Positions 54,328-64,000 of a stretch of 64,000 bases of DNA are shown here, in pieces (positions within the stretch are counted from its first letter, which is position 1; each line of letters starts with the position of its first letter). The notes below the pieces were generated by a model, which had not been told where the DNA came from, made no database searches, and was given only the letters and a program-made list of their open reading frames with translations. A program made the translations under genes and the position numbers. The DNA is taken from NCBI GenBank assembly GCA_963817385.1, contig CAWFOM010000006.1, positions 245,242 through 309,241 on the forward strand, in the 5' to 3' direction. This DNA is from an uncultured delta proteobacterium. GTDB lineage: Bacteria; Desulfobacterota; Syntrophia; Syntrophales; UBA5619.

Positions 54328-55251
54328 ATGGTTGTTGAAGAAAGCAAAGACTATCTGGATGTTAAGGCACTCATCATCCTCTTCATTATCACCCTGGTCT
54401 GGGGTTTCAACCATCCCAGTATCAAATACGCCAATCAGGGGATTGCTCCTGTATTCGCTTCAACCTTGCGCTCCATTATCGCTTCGATGTGTGGAGTGAT
54501 CTATTGCCTGTGGAAGAAGGAGAAAATATTTCACACCGACATCAATCTGCTGCACGGAGTTGTGGTTGGCCTCCTCTTTGGTTCGGAATTCGCCTGCTTA
54601 TACTTCGGACTTCTCTACACAGACGCGGCTCGCTCCATCATTTTCATTTACACGAGCCCCTTCATCGTGGCCGTGGGAGCCCACTTTTTTCTGAAGAGGG
54701 ATCGTTTGACGTTTTTAAAGACGCTGGGACTTGTTGTGGCCTTTATGGGGGTTTTACTGGTCTTTCAAGGAAGACCCACCGCGGCAAAACCCACCATGTT
54801 CATCGGGGACATCCTGGAAATCATCGCCGCTTTCTTTTGGGCAGTGACCACCCTCTATATCAAAAGGTTCATGGCAGGGAAGGTCCAGCCGATCCATACG
54901 TTTCTTTATCAACTTGTTTTCTCGATTCCGATCCTTTTCGTTGTGAGCTTCATCCTGGAACCCCGATGGATTATCATGCTGAATCCTTCTATTGTCGGCT
55001 GCATCCTCTTTCAGTCGGTAATCGTTGCCTTCATTACTTACTTTATCTGGTTCAAACTGATCCACGGCTATTCGGTGAGCAGGCTCTCCGCCTTCACCTT
55101 CCTGACACCTATTTTCGGGGTCCTTGCAGGCGTTATCTTTCTTAACGAAGAATTCACCGGCTCTTTAATGACGGGACTTCCTATGGTCTGCGTGGGAATT
55201 TTTCTGGTGAACTGGAAAAGAAAAAACGTTGGCCTTGATACGTTGAAATAA
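54328..55251 (+). CDS. EamA/DMT family transporter
   Basis: ~10 TM; VWGFN, YTSPF, FLTPIFGV. Confidence 0.9.
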   Translation: MVVEESKDYLDVKALIILFIITLVWGFNHPSIKYANQGIAPVFASTLRSIIASMCGVIYCLWKKEKIFHTDINLLHGVVVGLLFGSEFACLYFGLLYTDAARSIIFIYTSPFIVAVGAHFFLKRDRLTFLKTLGLVVAFMGVLLVFQGRPTAAKPTMFIGDILEIIAAFFWAVTTLYIKRFMAGKVQPIHTFLYQLVFSIPILFVVSFILEPRWIIMLNPSIVGCILFQSVIVAFITYFIWFKLIHGYSVSRLSAFTFLTPIFGVLAGVIFLNEEFTGSLMTGLPMVCVGIFLVNWKRKNVGLDTLK

Positions 55252-55469
55252 AGAGTTAAGAGATGATGCTTGAGCAGGAGGGTGCTGGAAGTGTGAACTC
55301 CTTCCTTGTAAGTGAGCGTCAGGTAATTTTGAAAAGAGTGCACCCTTTCGAAGGGTATTCATTATCCGTTATTGACTGAAAGTTTTAGGTTGAATAATTT
55401 CGTTGTCATAGTAGATTTCGAATGCAAATAATGATAATCATAAAGCGATAAAAAACGTTTGAATCAGTT

Positions 55470-55546
55470 CCATCCCGTATATCCATACTGGAGGAAAATA
55501 TGGACTGGCTAACAAAACCCCGTTTCTCATAAAAGAGCGGGGTTTT
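55470..55546 (+). repeat. Structured repeat with terminator-like hairpin (copy A)
   Basis: CCATCCCGTAT...CTGGAGG...AATATGGACTGGCT-ACAA plus hairpin AAAACCCCGTTTCT/AGAGCGGGGTTTT; second copy at 57875. Confidence 0.7.
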
Positions 55547-55623
55547 CCATTACATGCGATGAGGTTATAGTGAATTTTATGCCGATCCGTAATTCGTTTT
55601 AGACAAAGAAAGGAGGTCTGCAG

Positions 55624-56910
55624 ATGGCTGATCGTATTGTACACACTTCCAAAATGGCTTGGGTATTGGACCCGAAAGAACCGATGGCCGGCCTGGTCGC
55701 GGACGGCGGCATTATTGTGGCTCGCGTCTCGCCCGGCTGCTGGGGAGCGATGATTACCCCCGACTATGCGAGCGGGCATGAAGTTACCCACCCCATTGCC
55801 GTCGAAGGGGCCGAAATCGGCGACAGCGTCTGTCTCAAGATTAAAAAGATCAACGTTTTGTCCCTTGCAACGACCTCCGGGACCGATAGCTTTATTGAGG
55901 GGAATTTTATTGGCGACCCCTTCGTTGCCAAGCAGTGTCCCGGTTGCGGTCTGATCAACCCGAAGACTTATCTTGAAGGTATTGGCGAAGATGCCATAAA
56001 ATGCGCGGCCTGTAAAACTTCTGTTAAGCCATTTCACCTGGACAACGGCTATACCATGTTATTTAATGCCGAAAGAACCCTCGGGGTTACTGTTCCGCCA
56101 AAGATGTCAGAAGAGATTGCCCGCCAGTCTCAGCAATTCAGCGCCATTCCCACCGGATCATGCCAGTATTCCTCCAACCTGCTGGCGAAAGGTGATTTGT
56201 GGGGCGTCCTTACCCGCGTTCGCCCCATGGTGGGTAATATCGGGTCCTGCCCATCGGTGTCACTGCCGTCATCGCACAATGCCGGTGATTTTGGCTCTTT
56301 CCTGATCAATGCCCCCCATAAATACGCCCTTACTCCAGAACAACTCTTACAGCGCACCGACGGCCATATGGATATTAATGAGGTCGGCGAAGGGGCCATG
56401 GTTATTGTCCCGGTAAAGGTAGCTCAGGCGGGGATATATGTGGGCGATGTTCACGCCATGATGGGCGACGGCGAAGTCGCTGGCCACACGACAGACGTTT
56501 CCGCAGAAGTCATTATCGAAGTTAACGTTATTAAAGGCCTCACCATTGACGGTCCCATCGTTTTGCCTCTCTGCGAGAATCTGCCCTTGCTGGCCCGACC
56601 TTACACGGACGAGGAAAAGAGTGAAGCGGCGAGATTTTGCCGGAATTACGGCTTCCCGATCGAAACAGATGTGTATCCGGTGCAGGTAGTGGGTTCCGGT
56701 GCGGATCTGAATACTGCTACAGCCAATGGATTAACGAGAATGGCAGCGCTGACGGGGTATTCCACTGCGGAAGTCAAGAATCGCGCTACGATTACGGGAG
56801 ATATTCAAATCGGGAGGTTGCCGGGGGTTGTTCAAGTAACCATGTTGACGCCGGCAAACGTTCTTGAAAAGTTGAATCTGCTCAATCTTTATCAAATGCA
56901 ATACCAATAA
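55624..56910 (+). CDS. Acetamidase/formamidase family protein
   Basis: HEVTHPIAVEGAEIGD, DGHMD, PVKV...YVGDVHAMMGDGE; CxxC...CxxC insert. Confidence 0.88.
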   Translation: MADRIVHTSKMAWVLDPKEPMAGLVADGGIIVARVSPGCWGAMITPDYASGHEVTHPIAVEGAEIGDSVCLKIKKINVLSLATTSGTDSFIEGNFIGDPFVAKQCPGCGLINPKTYLEGIGEDAIKCAACKTSVKPFHLDNGYTMLFNAERTLGVTVPPKMSEEIARQSQQFSAIPTGSCQYSSNLLAKGDLWGVLTRVRPMVGNIGSCPSVSLPSSHNAGDFGSFLINAPHKYALTPEQLLQRTDGHMDINEVGEGAMVIVPVKVAQAGIYVGDVHAMMGDGEVAGHTTDVSAEVIIEVNVIKGLTIDGPIVLPLCENLPLLARPYTDEEKSEAARFCRNYGFPIETDVYPVQVVGSGADLNTATANGLTRMAALTGYSTAEVKNRATITGDIQIGRLPGVVQVTMLTPANVLEKLNLLNLYQMQYQ

Positions 56911-56942
56911 GTTAAACATAATTCAATGAAAGGAGAGGCAAA

Positions 56943-57584
56943 ATGGATCCCAAGACTACGGCAGTTGTTCTGATCGAGTATCAAAATGATTTCACTACCG
57001 AGGGTGGGACGCTCCATGGAGCGGTCAAGGGCGTGATGGAAAGCAACAACATGCTCGCAAACACGGTTGATTTGGTCGCGAAGGTGCGTAAGATCGGGGC
57101 GACTATCGTCTTCACCCCGATTTCCTTCACCGACGATTACCATGAACTGGCGATTCATCCCTACGGCATCCTCAAGGGGGTGGTCGATAGCAAGTCGTTC
57201 CGCAAAGGAACCTGGGGTGCCGAGATCGTGGACGTTCTGAAGCCGCAGCCACAGGACATTATCATCGAGGGCAAGCGCGGCCTGTGTGGTTTTGCCAGCA
57301 CCAACCTGGACTTCATCCTGCGTAGTCGGGGCATCAAGACCGTAGCACTGGGCGGCTTTCTGACCAACTGCTGCGTCGAATCGACCATGCGTACGGCCTA
57401 TGAGAAGGGCTACGACGTAATAACGCTCAAGGATTGCACTGCGACGCTTAGCGAGGAAGAGCAGCGCCTATCGATCGAAAAGAATTATCCGATGTTCTCG
57501 CGGGTGATGACGCACACCGAATTCCTGGAGGTGCTGGCCGGCGAACAAGCGACGGCGGGCTCAGGCAGGGGATACAACCAGTAA
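56943..57584 (+). CDS. Isochorismatase-family cysteine hydrolase
   Basis: LIEYQNDF, GKRGL, LTNCCVESTMR. Confidence 0.9.
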   Translation: MDPKTTAVVLIEYQNDFTTEGGTLHGAVKGVMESNNMLANTVDLVAKVRKIGATIVFTPISFTDDYHELAIHPYGILKGVVDSKSFRKGTWGAEIVDVLKPQPQDIIIEGKRGLCGFASTNLDFILRSRGIKTVALGGFLTNCCVESTMRTAYEKGYDVITLKDCTATLSEEEQRLSIEKNYPMFSRVMTHTEFLEVLAGEQATAGSGRGYNQ

Positions 57585-57874
57585 AGTCAGGAAGAAGGCA
57601 AATTCCGGCGTGGCTTATAGCGGTAGCTAATTCCTTTGCTTGTTTCTGTTTTAGGCACTGCTAGGCAGCCTTATCGAGCATGAGGCAGAGCAGTAGTTCC
57701 TTGTGGGTGCGGCTGGAAGACAGGCAGTGCAAGTCCTCCAGCACCGGCATGAGCAGGTGGGGTGTCGACGTGTGAGCTCCTTCCTCGTTAGGGTCATGAA
57801 TTTAGTTCGCGTACTGGATTTCAGTCGAAAATGGTGATAAAAGTGCGACTAAATAATGTAAGCAGTGTAATGTG

Positions 57875-57951
57875 CCATCCCGTATAATCTGCTGGAGGGA
57901 AATATGGACTGGCTGACAAGGCCCCGTTTTCACAAAATACGGGGTCTTTTT
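57875..57951 (+). repeat. Structured repeat with terminator-like hairpin (copy B)
   Basis: Matches 55470-55546; hairpin AAGGCCCCGTTTT/AAAATACGGGGTCTT followed by TTT. Confidence 0.7.
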
Positions 57952-58139
57952 GCATGTGAAAAAACCACCAGAAACTTTGGACAAATTTACCAGGTTTTAC
58001 GAAGTTCGCATTTACCGCTTATTAACAGATTATACGAAGTAGTGTGCGTGTGTATTTATTCGGAATCATGAATTAATCTCTGATATAAGGAAAATCGTCT
58101 ATGTTGAGATGATATCCAAAATATCGGAAAAAGCGAAGG

Positions 58140-58159
58140 TCGGATATTAATTGTTCGCC
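58140..58159 (+). other. Putative attI-like site (array entry point G|TTCGCC)
   Basis: TCGGATATTAATTGTTCGCC is non-palindromic; its TTCGCC complements R'' GGCGAAC of the first attC. Confidence 0.5.
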
Positions 58160-58171
58160 ACTAGATAAAAA

Positions 58172-58738
58172 ATGAATATAAACAGACTCAGAACGCTTCA
58201 TCAGCAATTTATCACCCCCAATAATGCCGAATGGGTTGAGGTGGTCAATCTGCGAAATAATATTAAGGAAGAATTTGAGAGGCAAGGATATCTTAATGCG
58301 GACACATATGAGACCATTCTTGATTGGAAACTGAGAAGACAGCGCAATCGCACAGAGAAGCACCGAGAGGACAATACTAACGATTTAATCAGGGAACTCA
58401 CTGGAACATTTTGGCGTGTTACTCATCCCAATGCTGCGAAACAGATGGAAATCAAATTAAAAGTCCTCATGGCGATTCCTGGTACCGGGCTTGGTGTTGC
58501 ATCCGCTATTCTCACCCTTAGCACTCCAGCGTCGTTCGCAATCATTGACTTCCGCAATTGGCGAGTTTTATACGATGAGCTTAAAAGAAACTTTACCCTG
58601 TCAGATTACAAAAAATATTTAGAAGCCATAAGGCAATTTGCCGCTCAACTGAACTGTGATGCTCAGGAAGTTGATTATCTCTTATGGAAAGAATATGAAA
58701 AAATCGGCGAACAAATCAATCAAGGCGACGGAGAATAA
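58172..58738 (+). CDS. Cassette 1: hypothetical protein with HhH-like motif (glycosylase-like)
   Basis: LMAIPGTGLGVASAIL...IIDFR...EVDYLLW; ORF ends inside attC1. Confidence 0.65.
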   Translation: MNINRLRTLHQQFITPNNAEWVEVVNLRNNIKEEFERQGYLNADTYETILDWKLRRQRNRTEKHREDNTNDLIRELTGTFWRVTHPNAAKQMEIKLKVLMAIPGTGLGVASAILTLSTPASFAIIDFRNWRVLYDELKRNFTLSDYKKYLEAIRQFAAQLNCDAQEVDYLLWKEYEKIGEQINQGDGE

Positions 58739-58796
58739 CGCTTGTTTGTTTTTCATTCAAGCTGGTTACCCCCGCGCCTTATTGTCGGCGTTCGGT
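58706..58796 (+). repeat. attC1
   Basis: GGCGAAC...CAATCAAGGCG / CGCCTTATTG (extrahelical base)...GTTCGGT. Confidence 0.88.
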
Positions 58797-58872
58797 CGCG
58801 CTGCGCGCGGCCGAACGGCGAGTTGCGCGGGGCGCCTCGCCCGATTAGTCCGACCGCGCGCTGATTCGCGCG

Positions 58873-58960
58873 GCCGAACAAATCGTTCGAGCCCTTCGCC
58901 CTCGGACTCGGCGAGTAAACTCGCCAGCCCGATTGCGAACCGCTCAACTCGCCGTTGGGG
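58873..58960 (+). repeat. attC2 (closes a gene-less cassette)
   Basis: GCCGAAC-AAATC-GTTCGAG...CTCAAC-TCGCC-GTTGGGG. Confidence 0.8.
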
Positions 58961-59072
58961 CCGAATCGGGACGGACCTAATGCATAACAGCGGACAGTCT
59001 AGAGATCTTTATCGCTCCAAACCGATTCGAGGATGAAAAACAGTTGCTAACAATTCTCACCAAAAGGAGGGT

Positions 59073-60050
59073 ATGCAAATGAAAAACCGCATTGTCTGCT
59101 TAATTACGTGCTGCCTACTCATACTTGGCGCGTTGCCCGCAATAGGCTTGGCTCAATCAATGCAATTGGAAAGGCTGAGACTATCTCTATACGTCTACAA
59201 AACCTTAAACTACCCCGATTCATCATCAACATGGGCTTACGGCATAGATGGAAACAACGTCGTAGGATATTATGAGGATGCTAGCGGTAAAGGGCACGGA
59301 TTCCTCTATAACGGCTTCACCTATAAAACACTTGATGTTCCCGACGCAATTATGACAAGCACCGAAGGCGTTAACGGAACCAACATCGTGGGATGGTATG
59401 TGGATAGCAATAGAAAAGTGCATGGCTTCCTCTATAACGGTGCAACTTATCAAACCATCGATGTGCCAGGGGCATTGCATACATACACCACGGGTATTAG
59501 CGGAACCAACATCGTGGGATGGTATGTGGACGCTAGCGAAAACCAGGACGCACATGGGTTCTTCTATAACGGCTCAAGCTACAAAATCCTCGATCCCCCC
59601 GGCTCAACATGGACACGAATTAATGGCATAAGTGGGACTTTAATTGTGGGGTTCTATACAACAGGCGAAGGGTATTCATATGGCTGCATCTATGACATCT
59701 CACCAAATCCATATTTTCCGCCTCCCAACTTTATTAAATCATTACGCTTCCCTGGTTCTGATACTACGCATGCCTACGGCATATATGAAAACGGAATAGT
59801 CGGACAATATATGGATGCCAGCCATGAATTGCATGGCTTCTATTATAACAACGCAACAAGCACGTATACCACCGTCGACAAACCCAATGCACAAAGGACA
59901 TTTCCAATTGGCATATATGGGGGCAAAATAGTGGGAAGCTATACTGATACCGGCACATGGAGTAAATGGTTTGGCTTCATTAGATATCTGAATCCGATTA
60001 TTACTGGTAAACCAATGGGTGTGCTACCCCCATGGCAGCAGATACCCTAA
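59073..60050 (+). CDS. Cassette 3: secreted beta-repeat protein
   Basis: Signal peptide; ~6 repeats of T-GI-G-NIVG-Y-D-HGF-YNG-Y-T-D-PG. Confidence 0.8.
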   Translation: MQMKNRIVCLITCCLLILGALPAIGLAQSMQLERLRLSLYVYKTLNYPDSSSTWAYGIDGNNVVGYYEDASGKGHGFLYNGFTYKTLDVPDAIMTSTEGVNGTNIVGWYVDSNRKVHGFLYNGATYQTIDVPGALHTYTTGISGTNIVGWYVDASENQDAHGFFYNGSSYKILDPPGSTWTRINGISGTLIVGFYTTGEGYSYGCIYDISPNPYFPPPNFIKSLRFPGSDTTHAYGIYENGIVGQYMDASHELHGFYYNNATSTYTTVDKPNAQRTFPIGIYGGKIVGSYTDTGTWSKWFGFIRYLNPIITGKPMGVLPPWQQIP

Positions 60051-60056
60051 ATGAAG

Positions 60057-60124
60057 CCCCAACAAGTCGTTCCACCGGATCGGCGAGAAAAAGCGCTCGC
60101 CTCCCGGCGAACTTCACGTTGGCT
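60057..60124 (+). repeat. attC3
   Basis: CCCCAAC...GTTCCACCGG / CCGGCGAAC...GTTGGCT. Confidence 0.88.
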
Positions 60125-60142
60125 GGAGAGGAAGGTGACAAG

Positions 60143-60565
60143 ATGGTCATGATGCTGAAGATGTCGGCTGAATCAGGGTACCTTCACGTATACGCGACGG
60201 GAAAGTTTTCGCTGGCGGAGGCGAAAAGAACATTTATAGAAATGCTCGAGGCTGTTGCGCGAAATAAGGTTGGGAAGGTACTCTTCGATGGCCGAGGCCT
60301 CACGGGAAGTCCTGAAATCATGGAACGGTTCTACTACGGCACATTTGCGGCCGAGACGGTCGCCCAATTCGGAGCTCGCGGTGTCTCCCTTGCCACAAAG
60401 TTCGCGTACGTTCTGGATGTCCCGATGCGTGACCCCGGGAGGTTCGGCGAAAACGTCGCCCGGAACCGGGGCATGCTTGTCACAACATTCGACAATCTCA
60501 ACGACGCTCTCGAATGGCTCGCAATAGCGCCAGCCAACAAGCCGGATGCAGGCGACGGGAAATAG
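60143..60565 (+). CDS. Cassette 4: SpoIIAA/STAS-like hypothetical protein
   Basis: YLHV-ATG, KVLFD-R, F-ENVARNRG...F-N---ALEWL; ORF ends inside attC4. Confidence 0.7.
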   Translation: MVMMLKMSAESGYLHVYATGKFSLAEAKRTFIEMLEAVARNKVGKVLFDGRGLTGSPEIMERFYYGTFAAETVAQFGARGVSLATKFAYVLDVPMRDPGRFGENVARNRGMLVTTFDNLNDALEWLAIAPANKPDAGDGK

Positions 60566-60590
60566 CCGCGCCTGATCCGCGGCGTTAGAT
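60532..60590 (+). repeat. attC4
   Basis: AGCCAAC...CGGATGCAGGCG / CGCCTGATCCG...GTTAGAT, 59 bp. Confidence 0.9.
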
Positions 60591-60606
60591 TATTAAAGGA
60601 ATAAGT

Positions 60607-61172
60607 ATGCCAACATCTAACACTCTGGTTAAATTGTATAGTGAAGTATCATCATGTTCAAAAAAGTGTGAGTCAATTAATAACGATCCTTCAAAGGAAT
60701 AATAGGGCGGAATGCCTTGCGGAATGGAAATTGAAATGGTAAGTAAAAATCATTGGAACTGAATGTACAAACCATTAAGTTCAATCGAACGAGTCTTAAA
60801 CATGAAGAACATGTGAAAGACGGTTGAAGGCAAAAATTCTTATATAATTCCATGTACCATGCATTTTGGATTGGGTTTCAACTTGGATTTTGCTCCTTCA
60901 GCTGTATTCCTGAATCATGACAGCAATAGTAAAATGCCAGTCAATATCGGACAAAACAAAAAAGCTCCCTCCATCAACAATCTCATTTTGTACTAATCAG
61001 TACTTATTTCGGGAGATAGAAGAAATTAAACCAAAATTTTTGCTTGGGGGAATTGCCTGTTGGAGTTCTATATCATCCTAGTTGGACCAATATGAAAGGT
61101 GGAGTAGAAAACTATAAAAAAGGCAAGCTAATAGAAATTAAAAAAGCATACCAAGAAGCAATAAGAATCTAA
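60607..61172 (+). pseudogene. Cassette 5: decayed AT-rich gene
   Basis: SD AAGGA + ATG at 60607 but early stops; a terminal frame ends at the TAA in attC5. Confidence 0.55.
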
Positions 61173-61228
61173 CCTCGCTGCACCGGATCGGCGCGTCACC
61201 GCGCCTCCCCGTGAGCTCATCGTTAGGC
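61167..61228 (+). repeat. attC5
   Basis: ATCTAAC...GCTGCAC / GTGAGC...GTTAGGC. Confidence 0.85.
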
Positions 61229-61237
61229 ACATAGATT

Positions 61238-61987
61238 ATGGCAAGAATTAAACAATCAAAAAAGGACTTAGAACAACAATTAAAACACCAAATTGGTTTT
61301 TTGATTGCCTCCTGCCAGTCTTATGACCTAGGGAAATATCCCGAAGCAAAAAGAATAGCAACCGTGCTCCGTACTCTTTTTCATAGAACTAGAACATGCA
61401 ATCCCCTTCTTGGCCAAGTGCAACTTAAGAATATACATTGGTTTAACTCTGCGGCCCCCTTCGATCCAAAGAATCTCGTCAGCCATATTGGCCTGACAAG
61501 CATTAGATTCACGTCAGGGAGCCTCCCCTGTTTAATACCGAAAGGAGCAAAAGAAAAAGAACCTGAACGACGAGAATATCCTACCTTAGATTTTAACCAG
61601 TGGTGGTCGAGACCGGTTGTTGTTGCAGTTGCAGGGGCTGAAATAAGATATTTTTCAAGGCAAAATCTAGTCCTGAATGTTGCTGAGACCGATGGCGGAA
61701 CCCATGTAGATGAAGGGCTTGATGAAATATATGACGAACTTTCTCGGCAAAATGGGCTTGGCCTTAATGCAATTGTAAATGGTAAGAAATATCCACTGCT
61801 ATATCCAGAACTTCCATGCCTCCGCCAAATTGGTCACGAGGTGCTTTTGACATTGAAGAAGAAGTCGCCACACCTTTTTGAAGAAACTTACGCCGATGAG
61901 ATTGTATTTGTCCCTTCTGGACAAGAAATTGACGATCCATCCGCTAAGATAGGGATAGAAATAAACATAAGAAAAGGGCATGCCTAA
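61238..61987 (+). CDS. Cassette 6: hypothetical protein
   Basis: 249-aa ORF filling the cassette; stop codon within attC6 R''. Confidence 0.8.
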   Translation: MARIKQSKKDLEQQLKHQIGFLIASCQSYDLGKYPEAKRIATVLRTLFHRTRTCNPLLGQVQLKNIHWFNSAAPFDPKNLVSHIGLTSIRFTSGSLPCLIPKGAKEKEPERREYPTLDFNQWWSRPVVVAVAGAEIRYFSRQNLVLNVAETDGGTHVDEGLDEIYDELSRQNGLGLNAIVNGKKYPLLYPELPCLRQIGHEVLLTLKKKSPHLFEETYADEIVFVPSGQEIDDPSAKIGIEINIRKGHA

Positions 61988-62040
61988 CAAGGCCATTCAT
62001 CCGACGCGCAGGAGCACGCGGCCGATGGCTAACGTTCGAC
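61982..62040 (+). repeat. attC6
   Basis: GCCTAAC...GCCATTC / GATGGC...GTTCGAC, 59 bp. Confidence 0.85.
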
Positions 62041-62053
62041 GCAAGGAGAACAG

Positions 62054-62527
62054 ATGAACTATGATGAAGATAAAATAGATGAATACACTCTGGCCCTTCT
62101 TTATCTTGTTACCCATGAAAGGCAAGAAGGATTGGGGGCGAGGGCTTGGAAGGGGTTCGACTGGGACACTTTGAACAGACTGCACGAGAAAGGTTATATA
62201 TCGAACCCGATAGGTAAGGCAAAGTCTGTCGTAATGACGGAAGAAGGTTTCCTTAAAGCGGAAGAACTCTTTGAACGCTATTTTGTGAAGGAAACAAAAA
62301 CAATACCCTTCCCGAAGATGACGCCTTCTGCAAAGAAACGCTGGGAGCAAATACCAGAACAGATGAGGAAAAAGATTCTTGAAAACGTCTGGTGCTCAAA
62401 ATGCCGGACTATGGTAAAACTCCAACTGCAAGAGGGGCAAATGTCGGGACGCTCTTTGGTTCTGAGAGGTATGTGTAAAACGTGCGGAAGTGAGGCTGCA
62501 AGGCTGGTAGAGCCGGTTGAAGAATAA
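62054..62527 (+). CDS. Cassette 7: DUF6429-like protein fused to a C-terminal zinc ribbon
   Basis: LALLYL...RAWKGFDWDTLNRLHEKGYI...KAKSVVMTEEG; WCSKC...CKTC. Confidence 0.8.
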   Translation: MNYDEDKIDEYTLALLYLVTHERQEGLGARAWKGFDWDTLNRLHEKGYISNPIGKAKSVVMTEEGFLKAEELFERYFVKETKTIPFPKMTPSAKKRWEQIPEQMRKKILENVWCSKCRTMVKLQLQEGQMSGRSLVLRGMCKTCGSEAARLVEPVEE

Positions 62528-62532
62528 AAACT

Positions 62533-62593
62533 GTCGAACCAGTCGCTGCACCGAATCCGGGCTACGCCCGTCTCGGTGAGCCTTTCGATGGCT
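62533..62593 (+). repeat. attC7 (right core GATGGCT)
   Basis: GTCGAAC...GCTGCACCGA / TCGGTGAGC...GATGGCT. Confidence 0.8.
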
Positions 62594-62662
62594 CGGACGC
62601 TTCGCGCCGAGCCATCGGCGCTGCGAATTGCCATCCGCTTTCCGGCCGGCGCTTACGCGCCT

Positions 62663-62746
62663 GGCCATCAAGCGGCTGCAGCTGGCAGCCGTCCCCGCGA
62701 GCAAGCTCGCGTGTACGTCAGCCGCTGATCCGCAGCGCCGTTACTG
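62663..62746 (+). repeat. attC8 (left core GGCCATC; closes a gene-less cassette)
   Basis: GGCCATC-AAGCG-GCTGCAGC...GCTGATCCGCAGCGCC-GTTACTG; right end irregular. Confidence 0.6.
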
Positions 62747-62977
62747 TCTTTCAAACCGTAATTCTTAGAAACGAGATTTATCGAAGTCATTTAGTTGTAG
62801 GTGTAAGCCAGTGTCACATACTGTCCGCATAATCCCTTTTCAAACCAAAAAGTACGAAAGAACCAGATGGCTCTCTTTTATCTCGCCTGATCGTCACCCC
62901 CATCCGCGTGAGGATGCGGAGCAGTCTTCCTGCTTGACAACCGGGCATTCTTACACTAAGAAGGAAATCCCTTGGCG

Positions 62978-62993
62978 TACATTGTATAATGTA
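62978..62993. promoter_or_regulatory. Palindromic operator candidate upstream of GntR
   Basis: TACATT-GTAT-AATGTA inverted repeat overlapping a tandem TGTATAA. Confidence 0.4.
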
Positions 62994-63180
62994 TAATTGT
63001 CAGGGGGAGATTGATGAGGGCCGGACGTTCCTGCGGCTGGTCTGCTGCGGCGGATAGCTGCCGAAACCGGATCCGAGATAATATCCGGGAGATGTTCTCC
63101 TGCCGGGAAGGCCGGGACGATAGTGAGACGATCGTGATCTGATGGAGGCGAGGAAAGGGCGTCGCCGGAGGGCACTGACC

Positions 63181-63957
63181 ATGGAATTGGAAAAACTGAT
63201 TCCGAGTATCGAGATCCCGAAGCAGAAACCTGTCGTTCTGATCGTGTATGAACAACTGTTGAGTGCGATCGTCACCGGAAAGCTGGCGGAGGGAGAGCGG
63301 CTCCTGGAGGCGGATCTCGCGAAGCTCTTCGGCGTCAGCCGTCAACCGATCCGCGAAGCGCTGCGGATGCTGGTCACGGACGGGTTCGTCGAGCTGATCC
63401 CGTACCGGGGGGTTATCGTTTCCACCATCACCCCCCAGGAGGCCAAGGATACGCTCGAGCTCAAGGGAATGGTCGAAGGGTACGCCGCCTGGATGGGCGC
63501 GCAGACGTTCGGCCCGGACATGATCGCCGAGCTGGAGACGCTGCTCAGGCAGATGGAAGCGCACATCCGGGAGGCCCAGTCGCGGGAGATCATTCAGGAC
63601 AATTACAGCTTCCATATGAAGATCGTCAGCGGCATCGGAAATGAAAAGCTGATTAAATACTACCAGGGTCTGTTCAACTCCCACCAGCGGTATTACGCGA
63701 TCGGATTATCGGAGCGGCCCGGCTGGCAGACCAGCGTAAACGAGCACCGGTTGATTCTGAAGAAGATCAGGTCCCGGGATGCCGTGGGGGCCTTCACCTG
63801 TGCCCGGCAGCACGCCTCCAACACCATCGACCGCGTCCTGGCGGCTTTGGAAAAGCGAAAAAAAGGGACGGATGGATCGCTTGCCCGCACAGCCGACTCT
63901 CAGACGATGAAACCAGGGCTGCAAAAAGCATCTGTAAGTAAATCAAAAAGACCATAA
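63181..63957 (+). CDS. GntR family transcriptional regulator (FCD subfamily)
   Basis: GERL-EADLA--FGVSRQPIREAL, FH--I...N, EH--IL. Confidence 0.92.
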   Translation: MELEKLIPSIEIPKQKPVVLIVYEQLLSAIVTGKLAEGERLLEADLAKLFGVSRQPIREALRMLVTDGFVELIPYRGVIVSTITPQEAKDTLELKGMVEGYAAWMGAQTFGPDMIAELETLLRQMEAHIREAQSREIIQDNYSFHMKIVSGIGNEKLIKYYQGLFNSHQRYYAIGLSERPGWQTSVNEHRLILKKIRSRDAVGAFTCARQHASNTIDRVLAALEKRKKGTDGSLARTADSQTMKPGLQKASVSKSKRP

Positions 63958-63968
63958 GGAGAACGGGA

Positions 63969-64000
63969 ATGAAGTTCAGATTTGACAAGAATGTAACGGC
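63969..64000 (+). CDS. Start of the next gene (partial)
   Basis: SD AGGAG then ATG; open to the window end. Confidence 0.5.
   Translation, partial: MKFRFDKNVT

Follow-up and report, generated by a model that had tools for sequence, protein, structure and literature searches.

A gene-less integron cassette complementary to its own attC site: a predicted Y-shaped fold and variant core triplets in several sequence families

Integron cassettes are usually viewed as vehicles for genes, whose GTT core is invariant and whose recombination site folds as a simple hairpin. MITEs, REP/REPIN sequences, and the IS200/IS605 group are short, non-coding, multi-copy elements that rely on an enzyme supplied in trans. 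CALIN and SALIN are integrase-less arrays and single cassettes at attG sites, respectively, and the genomic insertions made by IntI1 (attG) share a GWT consensus (10.1101/2022.09.11.507474). The central spacer of an attC site usually leaves 5–6 nt unpaired in each arm (PMC5027507), and, according to the accessible portion of PMC2811028, all integrons characterised so far keep GTT. Gene-less cassettes have been described as carriers of promoters or small RNAs (10.1101/2023.11.21.568050, PMC8876359); those tested from Vibrionaceae were promoters, matched by 450–650-bp controls (10.1101/2023.11.21.568050).

Here, we describe c8, a 153-nt gene-less cassette in a 64,000-nt stretch of DNA (the window) from an uncultured delta proteobacterium, together with its relatives, which are referred to as Y elements after their predicted three-armed fold. 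Like MITEs, REP/REPIN, and IS200/IS605, Y elements are short, non-coding, multi-copy, and apparently dependent on an enzyme in trans; unlike them, they end at integron crossovers, without the terminal inverted repeats and target-site duplication that define a MITE, and without the guide tetranucleotide, or conserved 4–5-nt target at one end, of REP and IS200/IS605 elements. They resemble the integron cassettes, CALIN, and SALIN of 10.1101/2022.09.11.507474, as presented in its accessible text, in possessing an attC with R'', L'', L', R', and an extrahelical base, in crossing over after a G, in their attI, attC, and GWT genomic targets, and in their bottom-strand bias. They differ from integron cassettes in having no gene, an interior antisense to their own attC arms, frequent GAT, GTA, or ATT cores, several copies per genome, near-saturation of some arrays, and, in c8, a 9-nt right spacer. 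Nevertheless, c8 is best filed as an integron cassette, one that fails the GTT and spacer-length conventions: it carries GAT/ATC where the conserved GTT/AAC triplet is expected, and its R''/R' and L''/L' arms are complementary, with the extrahelical L'' base in place (89.9% of alignment cells paired). It keeps its membership despite GAT because IntI1 needs only the first base (PMC2811028).

Like the ORF-less cassettes of Vibrionaceae and oral Treponema (10.1101/2023.11.21.568050; PMC8876359), c8 has an attC and no reading frame; unlike the Vibrionaceae promoter cassettes, it is 153 nt long, almost wholly paired, and lacks a sigma-70 consensus. The accessible text of 10.1101/2023.11.21.568050 nowhere uses the terms inverted, hairpin, or palindrome. 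The delta-attI cassettes of PMC12901181, as far as its accessible text describes them, are unusual but a different thing. Neither a self-complementary Y cassette nor natural cassette families with non-GTT cores turned up in our literature searches, although subscription papers or supplements may describe them, or in the accessible parts of 10.64898/2026.03.17.712381, 10.1101/2025.06.18.660453, PMC8352920, and PMC11511950. What stands apart is a natural and very widespread kind of cassette that carries no cargo, whose cores are systematically altered, and in which a competing fold is conserved.

The array and the anatomy of c8

58144..58155, + strand: attI-like site at the head of the array, ATATTAATTG|TT, with no adjoining intI in this genome (the bar marks the crossover)
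58154..62740, + strand: eight-cassette array without an integrase, with six gene cassettes and two Y elements, c8 being the last cassette
58791..58954, + strand: cassette c2, 164 nt, the second gene-less Y-fold element, of another sequence family
62533..62593, + strand: attC7, the site that c8 follows, belonging to the upstream DUF6429 cassette, with GTCGAAC at 62533–62539 and a G|ATGGCT end
62587..62593, + strand: R' core G|ATGGCT, with GAT replacing GTT; it also completes attC7
62587..62616, + strand: hairpin cap 1, a 10-bp stem from R' to the internal complement AGCCATC (62610–62616), with one bulged base
62588..62740, + strand: the whole cassette c8, 153 nt, starting one base past the left crossover G (62587) and including the right crossover G
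62617..62628, + strand: internal complement of the right spacer and L' of c8 itself (62728–62739)
62629..62631, + strand: 3-nt unpaired bulge at the predicted three-way junction, its letters varying among aligned copies
62632..62640, + strand: internal complement of the left spacer and the start of L'' (62670–62678), helix 3 of the covariation analysis
62641..62666, + strand: hairpin cap 2; the R'' ATC triplet stays in a mismatched internal loop
62663..62746, + strand: the attC of c8 itself, with R'' GGCCATC at 62663–62669, L'' at 62675–62682 with one extrahelical base, terminal stem 62683–62723, L' at 62724–62730, a 9-nt spacer, and R' G|TTACTG, which is supplied by the target

The ends of c8 recur unchanged in relatives with unrelated flanks; the right end reads GCAGCGCC G|TT, with the G at 62740. 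Its interior is the reverse complement of the flanks of its own attC: positions 62610–62628 complement R', the crossover base, the right spacer, and L', and in the circle the pairing of 62617–62628 extends hairpin 1 gap-free across the crossover. On the bottom strand, the loop of hairpin cap 1 is C-GAA-G. The left spacer of the attC measures 5 nt and the right one (L'–R') 9 nt, against 7–9 nt on the right among relatives; unlike c8, both c2 and the two Y elements on contig C1 possess spacers of normal length. A first, sequence-only reading of this DNA had noticed the complementary triplet change at R', R'', and the internal AGCCATC, and had placed an inverted mini-attC, sharing the AAGCG spacer, at 62610–62647 inside the cassette. 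Both are present in the sequence as described, the mini-attC including the complement of that spacer, and c2 has the same layout; the pairing of the interior with the cassette's own attC arms and the 9-nt spacer go beyond that reading.

The attI-like motif at the array head recurs 150–171 nt from intact intI genes in three other loci (L094, L096, L107). In this genome, which is 82% complete, intI is represented only by fragments (C4:67541-67913; C1:198301-198477; C5:142008-142184; C12:83487-83608), and in the one on C4 the N-terminal 90 codons adjoin the last 30, that is, an internal deletion. One of the gene cassettes (window 59073–60050) encodes a 325-aa protein with a predicted leader and an HGFxYNG motif repeated every 42–44 residues, without a Pfam match at 1e-3. 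Two pairs of unexplained intergenic direct repeats (55268–55312/57747–57791 and 55488–55525/57892–57929), 78% and 89% alike and approximately 2.4 kb apart, lie shortly before the start of the array.

Protein coding by the element was considered and rejected, given family lengths of 145–166 nt with indels that are not in threes. No sigma-70 consensus promoter on either strand and no terminator-like site was found inside c8, and an Rfam search of 55000–64000 returned a single match (E 0.72), outside the element, and none for c8.

Core triplets and competing folds

Two further copies in the same genome, on contigs C25 and C9, are 93% identical to c8 and carry GAT/ATC at all three places; the c8 core is therefore real. 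The sequence-only reading had argued that one sequencing error could not produce such a pattern, and error as the source of GAT is indeed excluded by these copies and by 83 of 125 distinct relatives. When the 125 distinct members of the c8 family are scored at R', the internal copy, and R'', 83 are GAT throughout and 21 GTT throughout, 7 are ATT/ATT/GTT, and 14 are mixed or misread. In the contigs of four other metagenomes, no alternative letter appears at 62588 or 62668 among the matches listed. Among c8-like metagenome copies, the core is GAT in 72 of 103 and the site entered is GTT in 90 of 103. Most c2 relatives have a GTA core (R' in 14 of 20 aligned copies), with the internal copy always matching and AAC at R'' in 20 of 20; in the other families, ATT at R' and in the internal copy accompanies a GTT-type R'' in 7 of 8. 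By this comparison, non-GTT cores are a trait of the Y architecture, whose families often carry GAT, GTA, or ATT.

The same cores have been made experimentally as attCaadA7 and attI1 cleavage-site mutants, with GAT performing at least as well as GTT. Relative to wild type, IntI1 recombined attC-GAT with attI1 at 1.9-fold, attI1-GAT at 4.6-fold, and GAT with GAT at 3.2-fold; the values were 0.56 for GTA with wild type, 0.056 for GTA with GTA, and 0.003 for ATT with wild type (PMC2811028, accessible portion). Unlike those mutants, whole natural families carry the variant cores here, often with R'' unchanged. That an integrase tolerates a GAT crossover, as the sequence-only reading had supposed, is thus borne out by published IntI1 data and hence already known; the new part is the architecture and the natural families with variant cores.

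The bottom strand of c8 is predicted to fold at −69.7 kcal/mol (z = −9.98; none of 200 shuffles as good), against −57.8 kcal/mol for the top strand, and the bottom strand is the more stable one in 68 of 68 and 103 of 103 elements. For the circularised bottom strand, the prediction is a three-armed Y (−70.0 kcal/mol) with a duplex continuous across the crossover, the R'' triplet in a mismatched loop, and two small hairpins capping the ends; c2 reaches an equivalent predicted Y from different sequence (−70.5 kcal/mol). Forcing the classical R box in the circle costs a predicted 26.5 kcal/mol in c8, 16.5 in c2, and 33.6 in the C1a element. In the integrated form, the predicted cost is 15.9 kcal/mol for c8's own attC and 8.5 for the upstream attC. 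A hybrid fold, which combines the internal R box with the classical L box, comes below the classical fold, at predicted costs of 7.8 and 12.2 kcal/mol.

Both folds leave traces in the alignments. For the Y fold, 91.5% of cells pair, compared with 27–48% in slid controls, and 15 of 47 pairs have changed on both sides, which none of 500 shuffles reaches; covariation is seen in hairpin 1 (helix 1), the cross-crossover arm (helix 2), helix 3, and cap 2 (helices 5–6). Eleven different right-spacer variants, length changes included, each have a perfect internal complement, in a set that came from a scan demanding pairing; with a spacer-free pattern, 48 of 52 matches pair at 4–5 of the 5 spacer positions. 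On the internal strand, G·T pairs fall on the bottom rather than the top strand (108 vs 10 in 126 c8 elements, 22 vs 1 in c2, 12 vs 1 in the others), and the bottom-strand loop of hairpin 1 is C-GNA-G in 107 of 126 c8 and 22 of 22 c2 elements; GCGNAGC is an unusually stable DNA mini-hairpin (PMC13037366, PMC3201870, as far as accessible). Truncated copies were removed before the right-spacer and the core and loop counts.

In c8, 5 of the 6 pairs between R'' and R' of the classical attC covary, and these pairs can form only once the element is a circle; in the ATT families, R'' retains the G required by an incoming target C. The compensatory changes, bottom-strand G·T pairs, and C-GNA-G loops together indicate selection on single-stranded DNA, and, as judged from these alignments, the Y fold and the classical fold are both under selection. 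The sequences are related, so that the counts represent non-independent events, and the de novo scan required arm pairing; hairpin-templated copying, moreover, could explain part of the compensatory changes.

Spread, insertion sites, and array patterns

Matches to c8, many of them partial, occur in 33 of 301 genomes of the class, and matches to c2 in 51 of 301. A pattern built on c8 finds 52 stretches in a one-genome-per-species collection, in Desulfobacterota, Patescibacteria, Planctomycetota, Chlorobiota, Spirochaetota, NC10, Omnitrophota, Eisenbacteria, Acidobacteria, Latescibacterota, Halanaerobiaceae, and Gallionellaceae, as well as at least 134 metagenome stretches. It has no matches in viral contigs, and blastn at the sensitivity used gave none for the c8 or c2 family in 72,556 plasmids. 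Single families persist across more than 10 phylum-level groups, and c8-type elements have likely been spread through many phyla by the integron integrase. Elements measure 130–165 nt, and they are also found in an organism that is in culture and completely sequenced (L055 record). Nine long copies are present in one 2.2-Mb genome, and nine matches in a complete genome of 9.6 Mb; in the regions of the latter that were examined, there are seven element starts, with other DNA between each of them. Many copies are deleted or decayed. No sequencing run contained half of the stretch, and no RNA data set was among those listed with it. Summed contig depth in four metagenomes was 56–516 on the two Y elements against 0–24 on gene cassettes, values that do not amount to a copy number; no excised-circle joint was among the matches listed in the contigs of four metagenomes, which drop rare forms.

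A sequence-free scan for the architecture revealed two further families in this genome and five BLAST clusters in 621 kb of loci, as well as three more divergent Y elements. The first de novo scan gave false hits in an AT-only tract, and the later ones applied thresholds of 50% GC and −0.33 kcal/mol per base. (The genome, otherwise GC-rich, contains about 700 nt of nearly pure A/T at C1:52985-53700, a possible contamination or assembly artefact.) The predicted Y design is common to at least five sequence families. In this respect, the earlier proposal that such cassettes are produced repeatedly holds for the design, but c2 and c8 themselves belong to two old, widespread, multi-copy families and are not fresh local products.

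A second integrase-less array (L121) contains two Y-fold gene-less cassettes of other families (C1:112200-112039 and 110578-110414, minus strand), both of which end in A|TT although they entered G|TT sites. A further element-like family adjoins c2 or cluster-2 elements at L094:1-69 (minus strand) and in L038 upstream of 1341; the adjacency in L038 was seen by eye, and L094 is the one side-by-side case counted.

From 79 architecture-scan matches, four misplaced or duplicate ones were removed, leaving 75 elements. Our attC-detection script places 35 of these directly after an attC, 36 elsewhere, and 4 at contig edges; it overlooks real sites, as seen in 5 more elements that, by eye, follow an attC and in several zero counts of the gap analysis. 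Five of the 75 lie 150–204 nt from an intI gene (TIGR02249 above cut-off in four, one truncated). By eye, approximately 16 more have the attI-like motifs of these intI-adjacent copies, and about 11 are at other sites. Elements with a GAT core are found at the attI adjoining an intI gene in L017, L075, and L087, the gene being full-length in L017.

The element ends at G|TT-type crossovers in attI, attC, and attG targets without duplication or loss, except in the C9 copy (C9:122188-122340, L119), where the last G is missing and the right junction reads C|TT, which may reflect imprecise recombination, a later deletion, or an assembly slip. Target flanks share only the G and WT. In L044, a copy splits an rloB gene exactly at G|AT, the halves covering positions 1–97 and 99–195 of the Pfam profile; when the element is removed in silico, the flanks join into a long open reading frame in 3 of the 11 cases tested, with a family match confirming L044 only. 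The C9 and C25 copies are 100% identical over 153 nt, the former within an array and the latter alone at an intergenic G|TT site, the empty version of which was not found in 14 genomes of the same genus. Occurrence as a REP-like repeat independent of attC arrays would have refuted the sequence-only reading; solo copies do exist, but they occupy G|TT or G|AT sites, and the reading survives this check. This pattern is the signature expected of IntI, and it is from the pattern that we infer a role for the enzyme. Cassette finders probably miscount Y elements as double attC sites.

In several metagenome arrays, a c8 element follows nearly every gene cassette (L208, L210, L213, L169, L196, L145), and some arrays alternate element and gene cassette one-to-one. 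Six bases around the junction bulge vary between otherwise near-identical copies in these arrays. Among 196 records, there is no tandem of the same family and one tandem of two different families (L094); wherever one copy succeeds another (26 gaps), 449 nt or more lie between them, usually with a single attC detected there. Copies that have a downstream cassette in common differ by 0, 1, 2, 4, and 5 bases (5 related pairs), and 19 pairs with a common upstream site, in many cases only an attI, differ by 0–55, the subfamily mean being 5.8. These differences weakly suggest that the element may travel with its downstream cassette; two of the same-upstream pairs, which differ by just 0 and 1 base, count against such linkage.

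What the branched fold may do

The explanation we favour, and to which we would give about an even chance, is that c8 is a selfish, gene-less mini-cassette mobilised by IntI, in which the Y fold is the off state of its own attC and the classical fold is the one that recombines. IntI would move the element as a selfish passenger. The bottom strand would switch between the classical attC hairpin, likely the recombining form, and the more stable Y, likely the off state, in which the internal inverted copy would mask the element's own attC. The Y would then block excision of the 153-nt cassette at that site and leave hardly any of the free circle unpaired. Infrequent opening into the classical fold would allow the element to insert at attI, after gene cassettes, and into stray GWT sites; it would then often travel as the leader of a downstream cassette. 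Non-GTT cores could persist if IntI needs only a first-base match, with R' answering to its internal partner as well as to R''. Self-masking of this kind would allow a tiny selfish element to escape renewed excision.

Published work, as far as accessible, offers some support: attC sites that fold poorly are seldom excised, with more excision of shorter cassettes in such pairs (PMC5371416), and recombination is very poor when the spacer is fully paired and extrahelical bases are lacking (PMC2727003). The ATT families also speak for the classical fold as the recombining one, in that the G of R'' would accept the target C and the internal A would not. Several observations count against an off state. 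A barrier of 16–34 kcal/mol is hard to square with frequent landing at attI, the 9-nt spacer of the classical c8 fold is atypical, the missing tandems might reflect the collapse of direct repeats in cells or in short-read assembly, and this genome contains intI only as fragments. In addition, R' in c2 and the ATT families follows the internal copy rather than R'', as would be expected were the Y itself the substrate: it matches the internal copy against R'' in 20 versus 6 of 20 aligned c2 copies, and it follows the internal copy in all 8 elements of the other families. In c8, R' matches the internal copy in 116 and R'' in 107 of 125 elements. Should the elements prove to be parasites, they would show how the structure of a recombination site can control its own activity; they may also influence how environmental cassette arrays are ordered, how stable they are, and how they are expressed.

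A clearly less probable alternative is that the branched fold is itself the substrate of IntI. R' and the internal strand would form a perfect R box, the attC L box on the neighbouring arm would keep its extrahelical base, and a three- or four-way junction would replace the unpaired spacer. Besides the R' matches, this is consistent with pairing that continues without a break over the crossover in each of the five families, a feature needed by the circle alone, with the hybrid fold being cheaper (7.8 and 12.2 kcal/mol) than the classical one, and with the finding, in the accessible part of PMC5027507, that some attC sites recombine well without extrahelical bases. Against it, R'' still covaries with R' in c8, and spacer pairing lowers recombination (PMC2727003, accessible part). 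The internal partner in the ATT families is an A, as in the ATT mutant that fared approximately 300-fold worse with a G|TT attI (PMC2811028, as far as accessible), and yet, despite ATT, all 8 elements of the other families landed at G|TT targets. It is a tentative suggestion that these are distinct minimal single-stranded DNA parasites of integrons, whose branched fold IntI recombines as a fourth substrate beside attI, attC, and attG. Were there such a class, a built-in strand would serve as the R-box partner, freeing the core from GTT and allowing the element to fill whole arrays, and other site-specific recombinases may use the same design. At 130–165 nt, the elements can be synthesised, and the fold used by IntI is directly testable.

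It is improbable that the element is a host-useful spacer, damping the expression of the gene cassette behind it or stabilising it, with the structure kept for that effect. The element does stand before nearly every gene cassette in some arrays and is often first at attI, and first cassettes are polar on downstream genes in a manner linked to their own translation (PMC11511950, accessible part). However, copies also occur last in an array (c8), alone between genes (C25), and inside a gene (L044), the element contains no sigma-70 promoter or terminator-like site, and its loops and wobble pairs point to bottom-strand DNA rather than a transcript.

Somewhat less probable still is a neutral by-product, whereby fold-back copying across a folded attC, while a cassette forms or replicates, creates the element and hairpin-templated correction matches the arms without selection. 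This would account for an interior that literally complements the attC minus its terminal stem, an anatomy that may in any case bear on the origin of cassettes, and deleted and decayed copies are frequent. In one GTA-core c2 copy (C7:2412-2576, L120), a single internal base matches the upstream flank and not the element's own right end, a change that hairpin-templated correction after insertion would give. On the other side, matches are kept over approximately 110 nt, including two-sided length changes, strand-specific G·T pairs, and GNA loops, and single families range across more than 10 phylum-level groups.

Finally, it is very unlikely that an HUH transposase moves the element as a REP- or IS200/IS605-like repeat, or that the element is a gene for a structured RNA: GC-rich hairpins with small loops, solo copies, and the lack of target duplication would fit, but only G and WT are conserved at the target, with no 4–5-nt guide, most copies lie exactly at attI or attC crossovers, and there is no Rfam match.

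Some copies are much reduced. Two loci of one genome (L289:11382 and L290:4555, G304) have internal deletions that keep hairpin 1 and the cross-crossover arm and lose R'' and the attC stem; the shortest copy of this type is approximately 55 nt, and, if such forms occur at several unrelated sites, the arm alone would be mobile. Lone hairpin-1 remnants of the C1b family lie at contig ends at C4:96-131 and C1:388717-388752.
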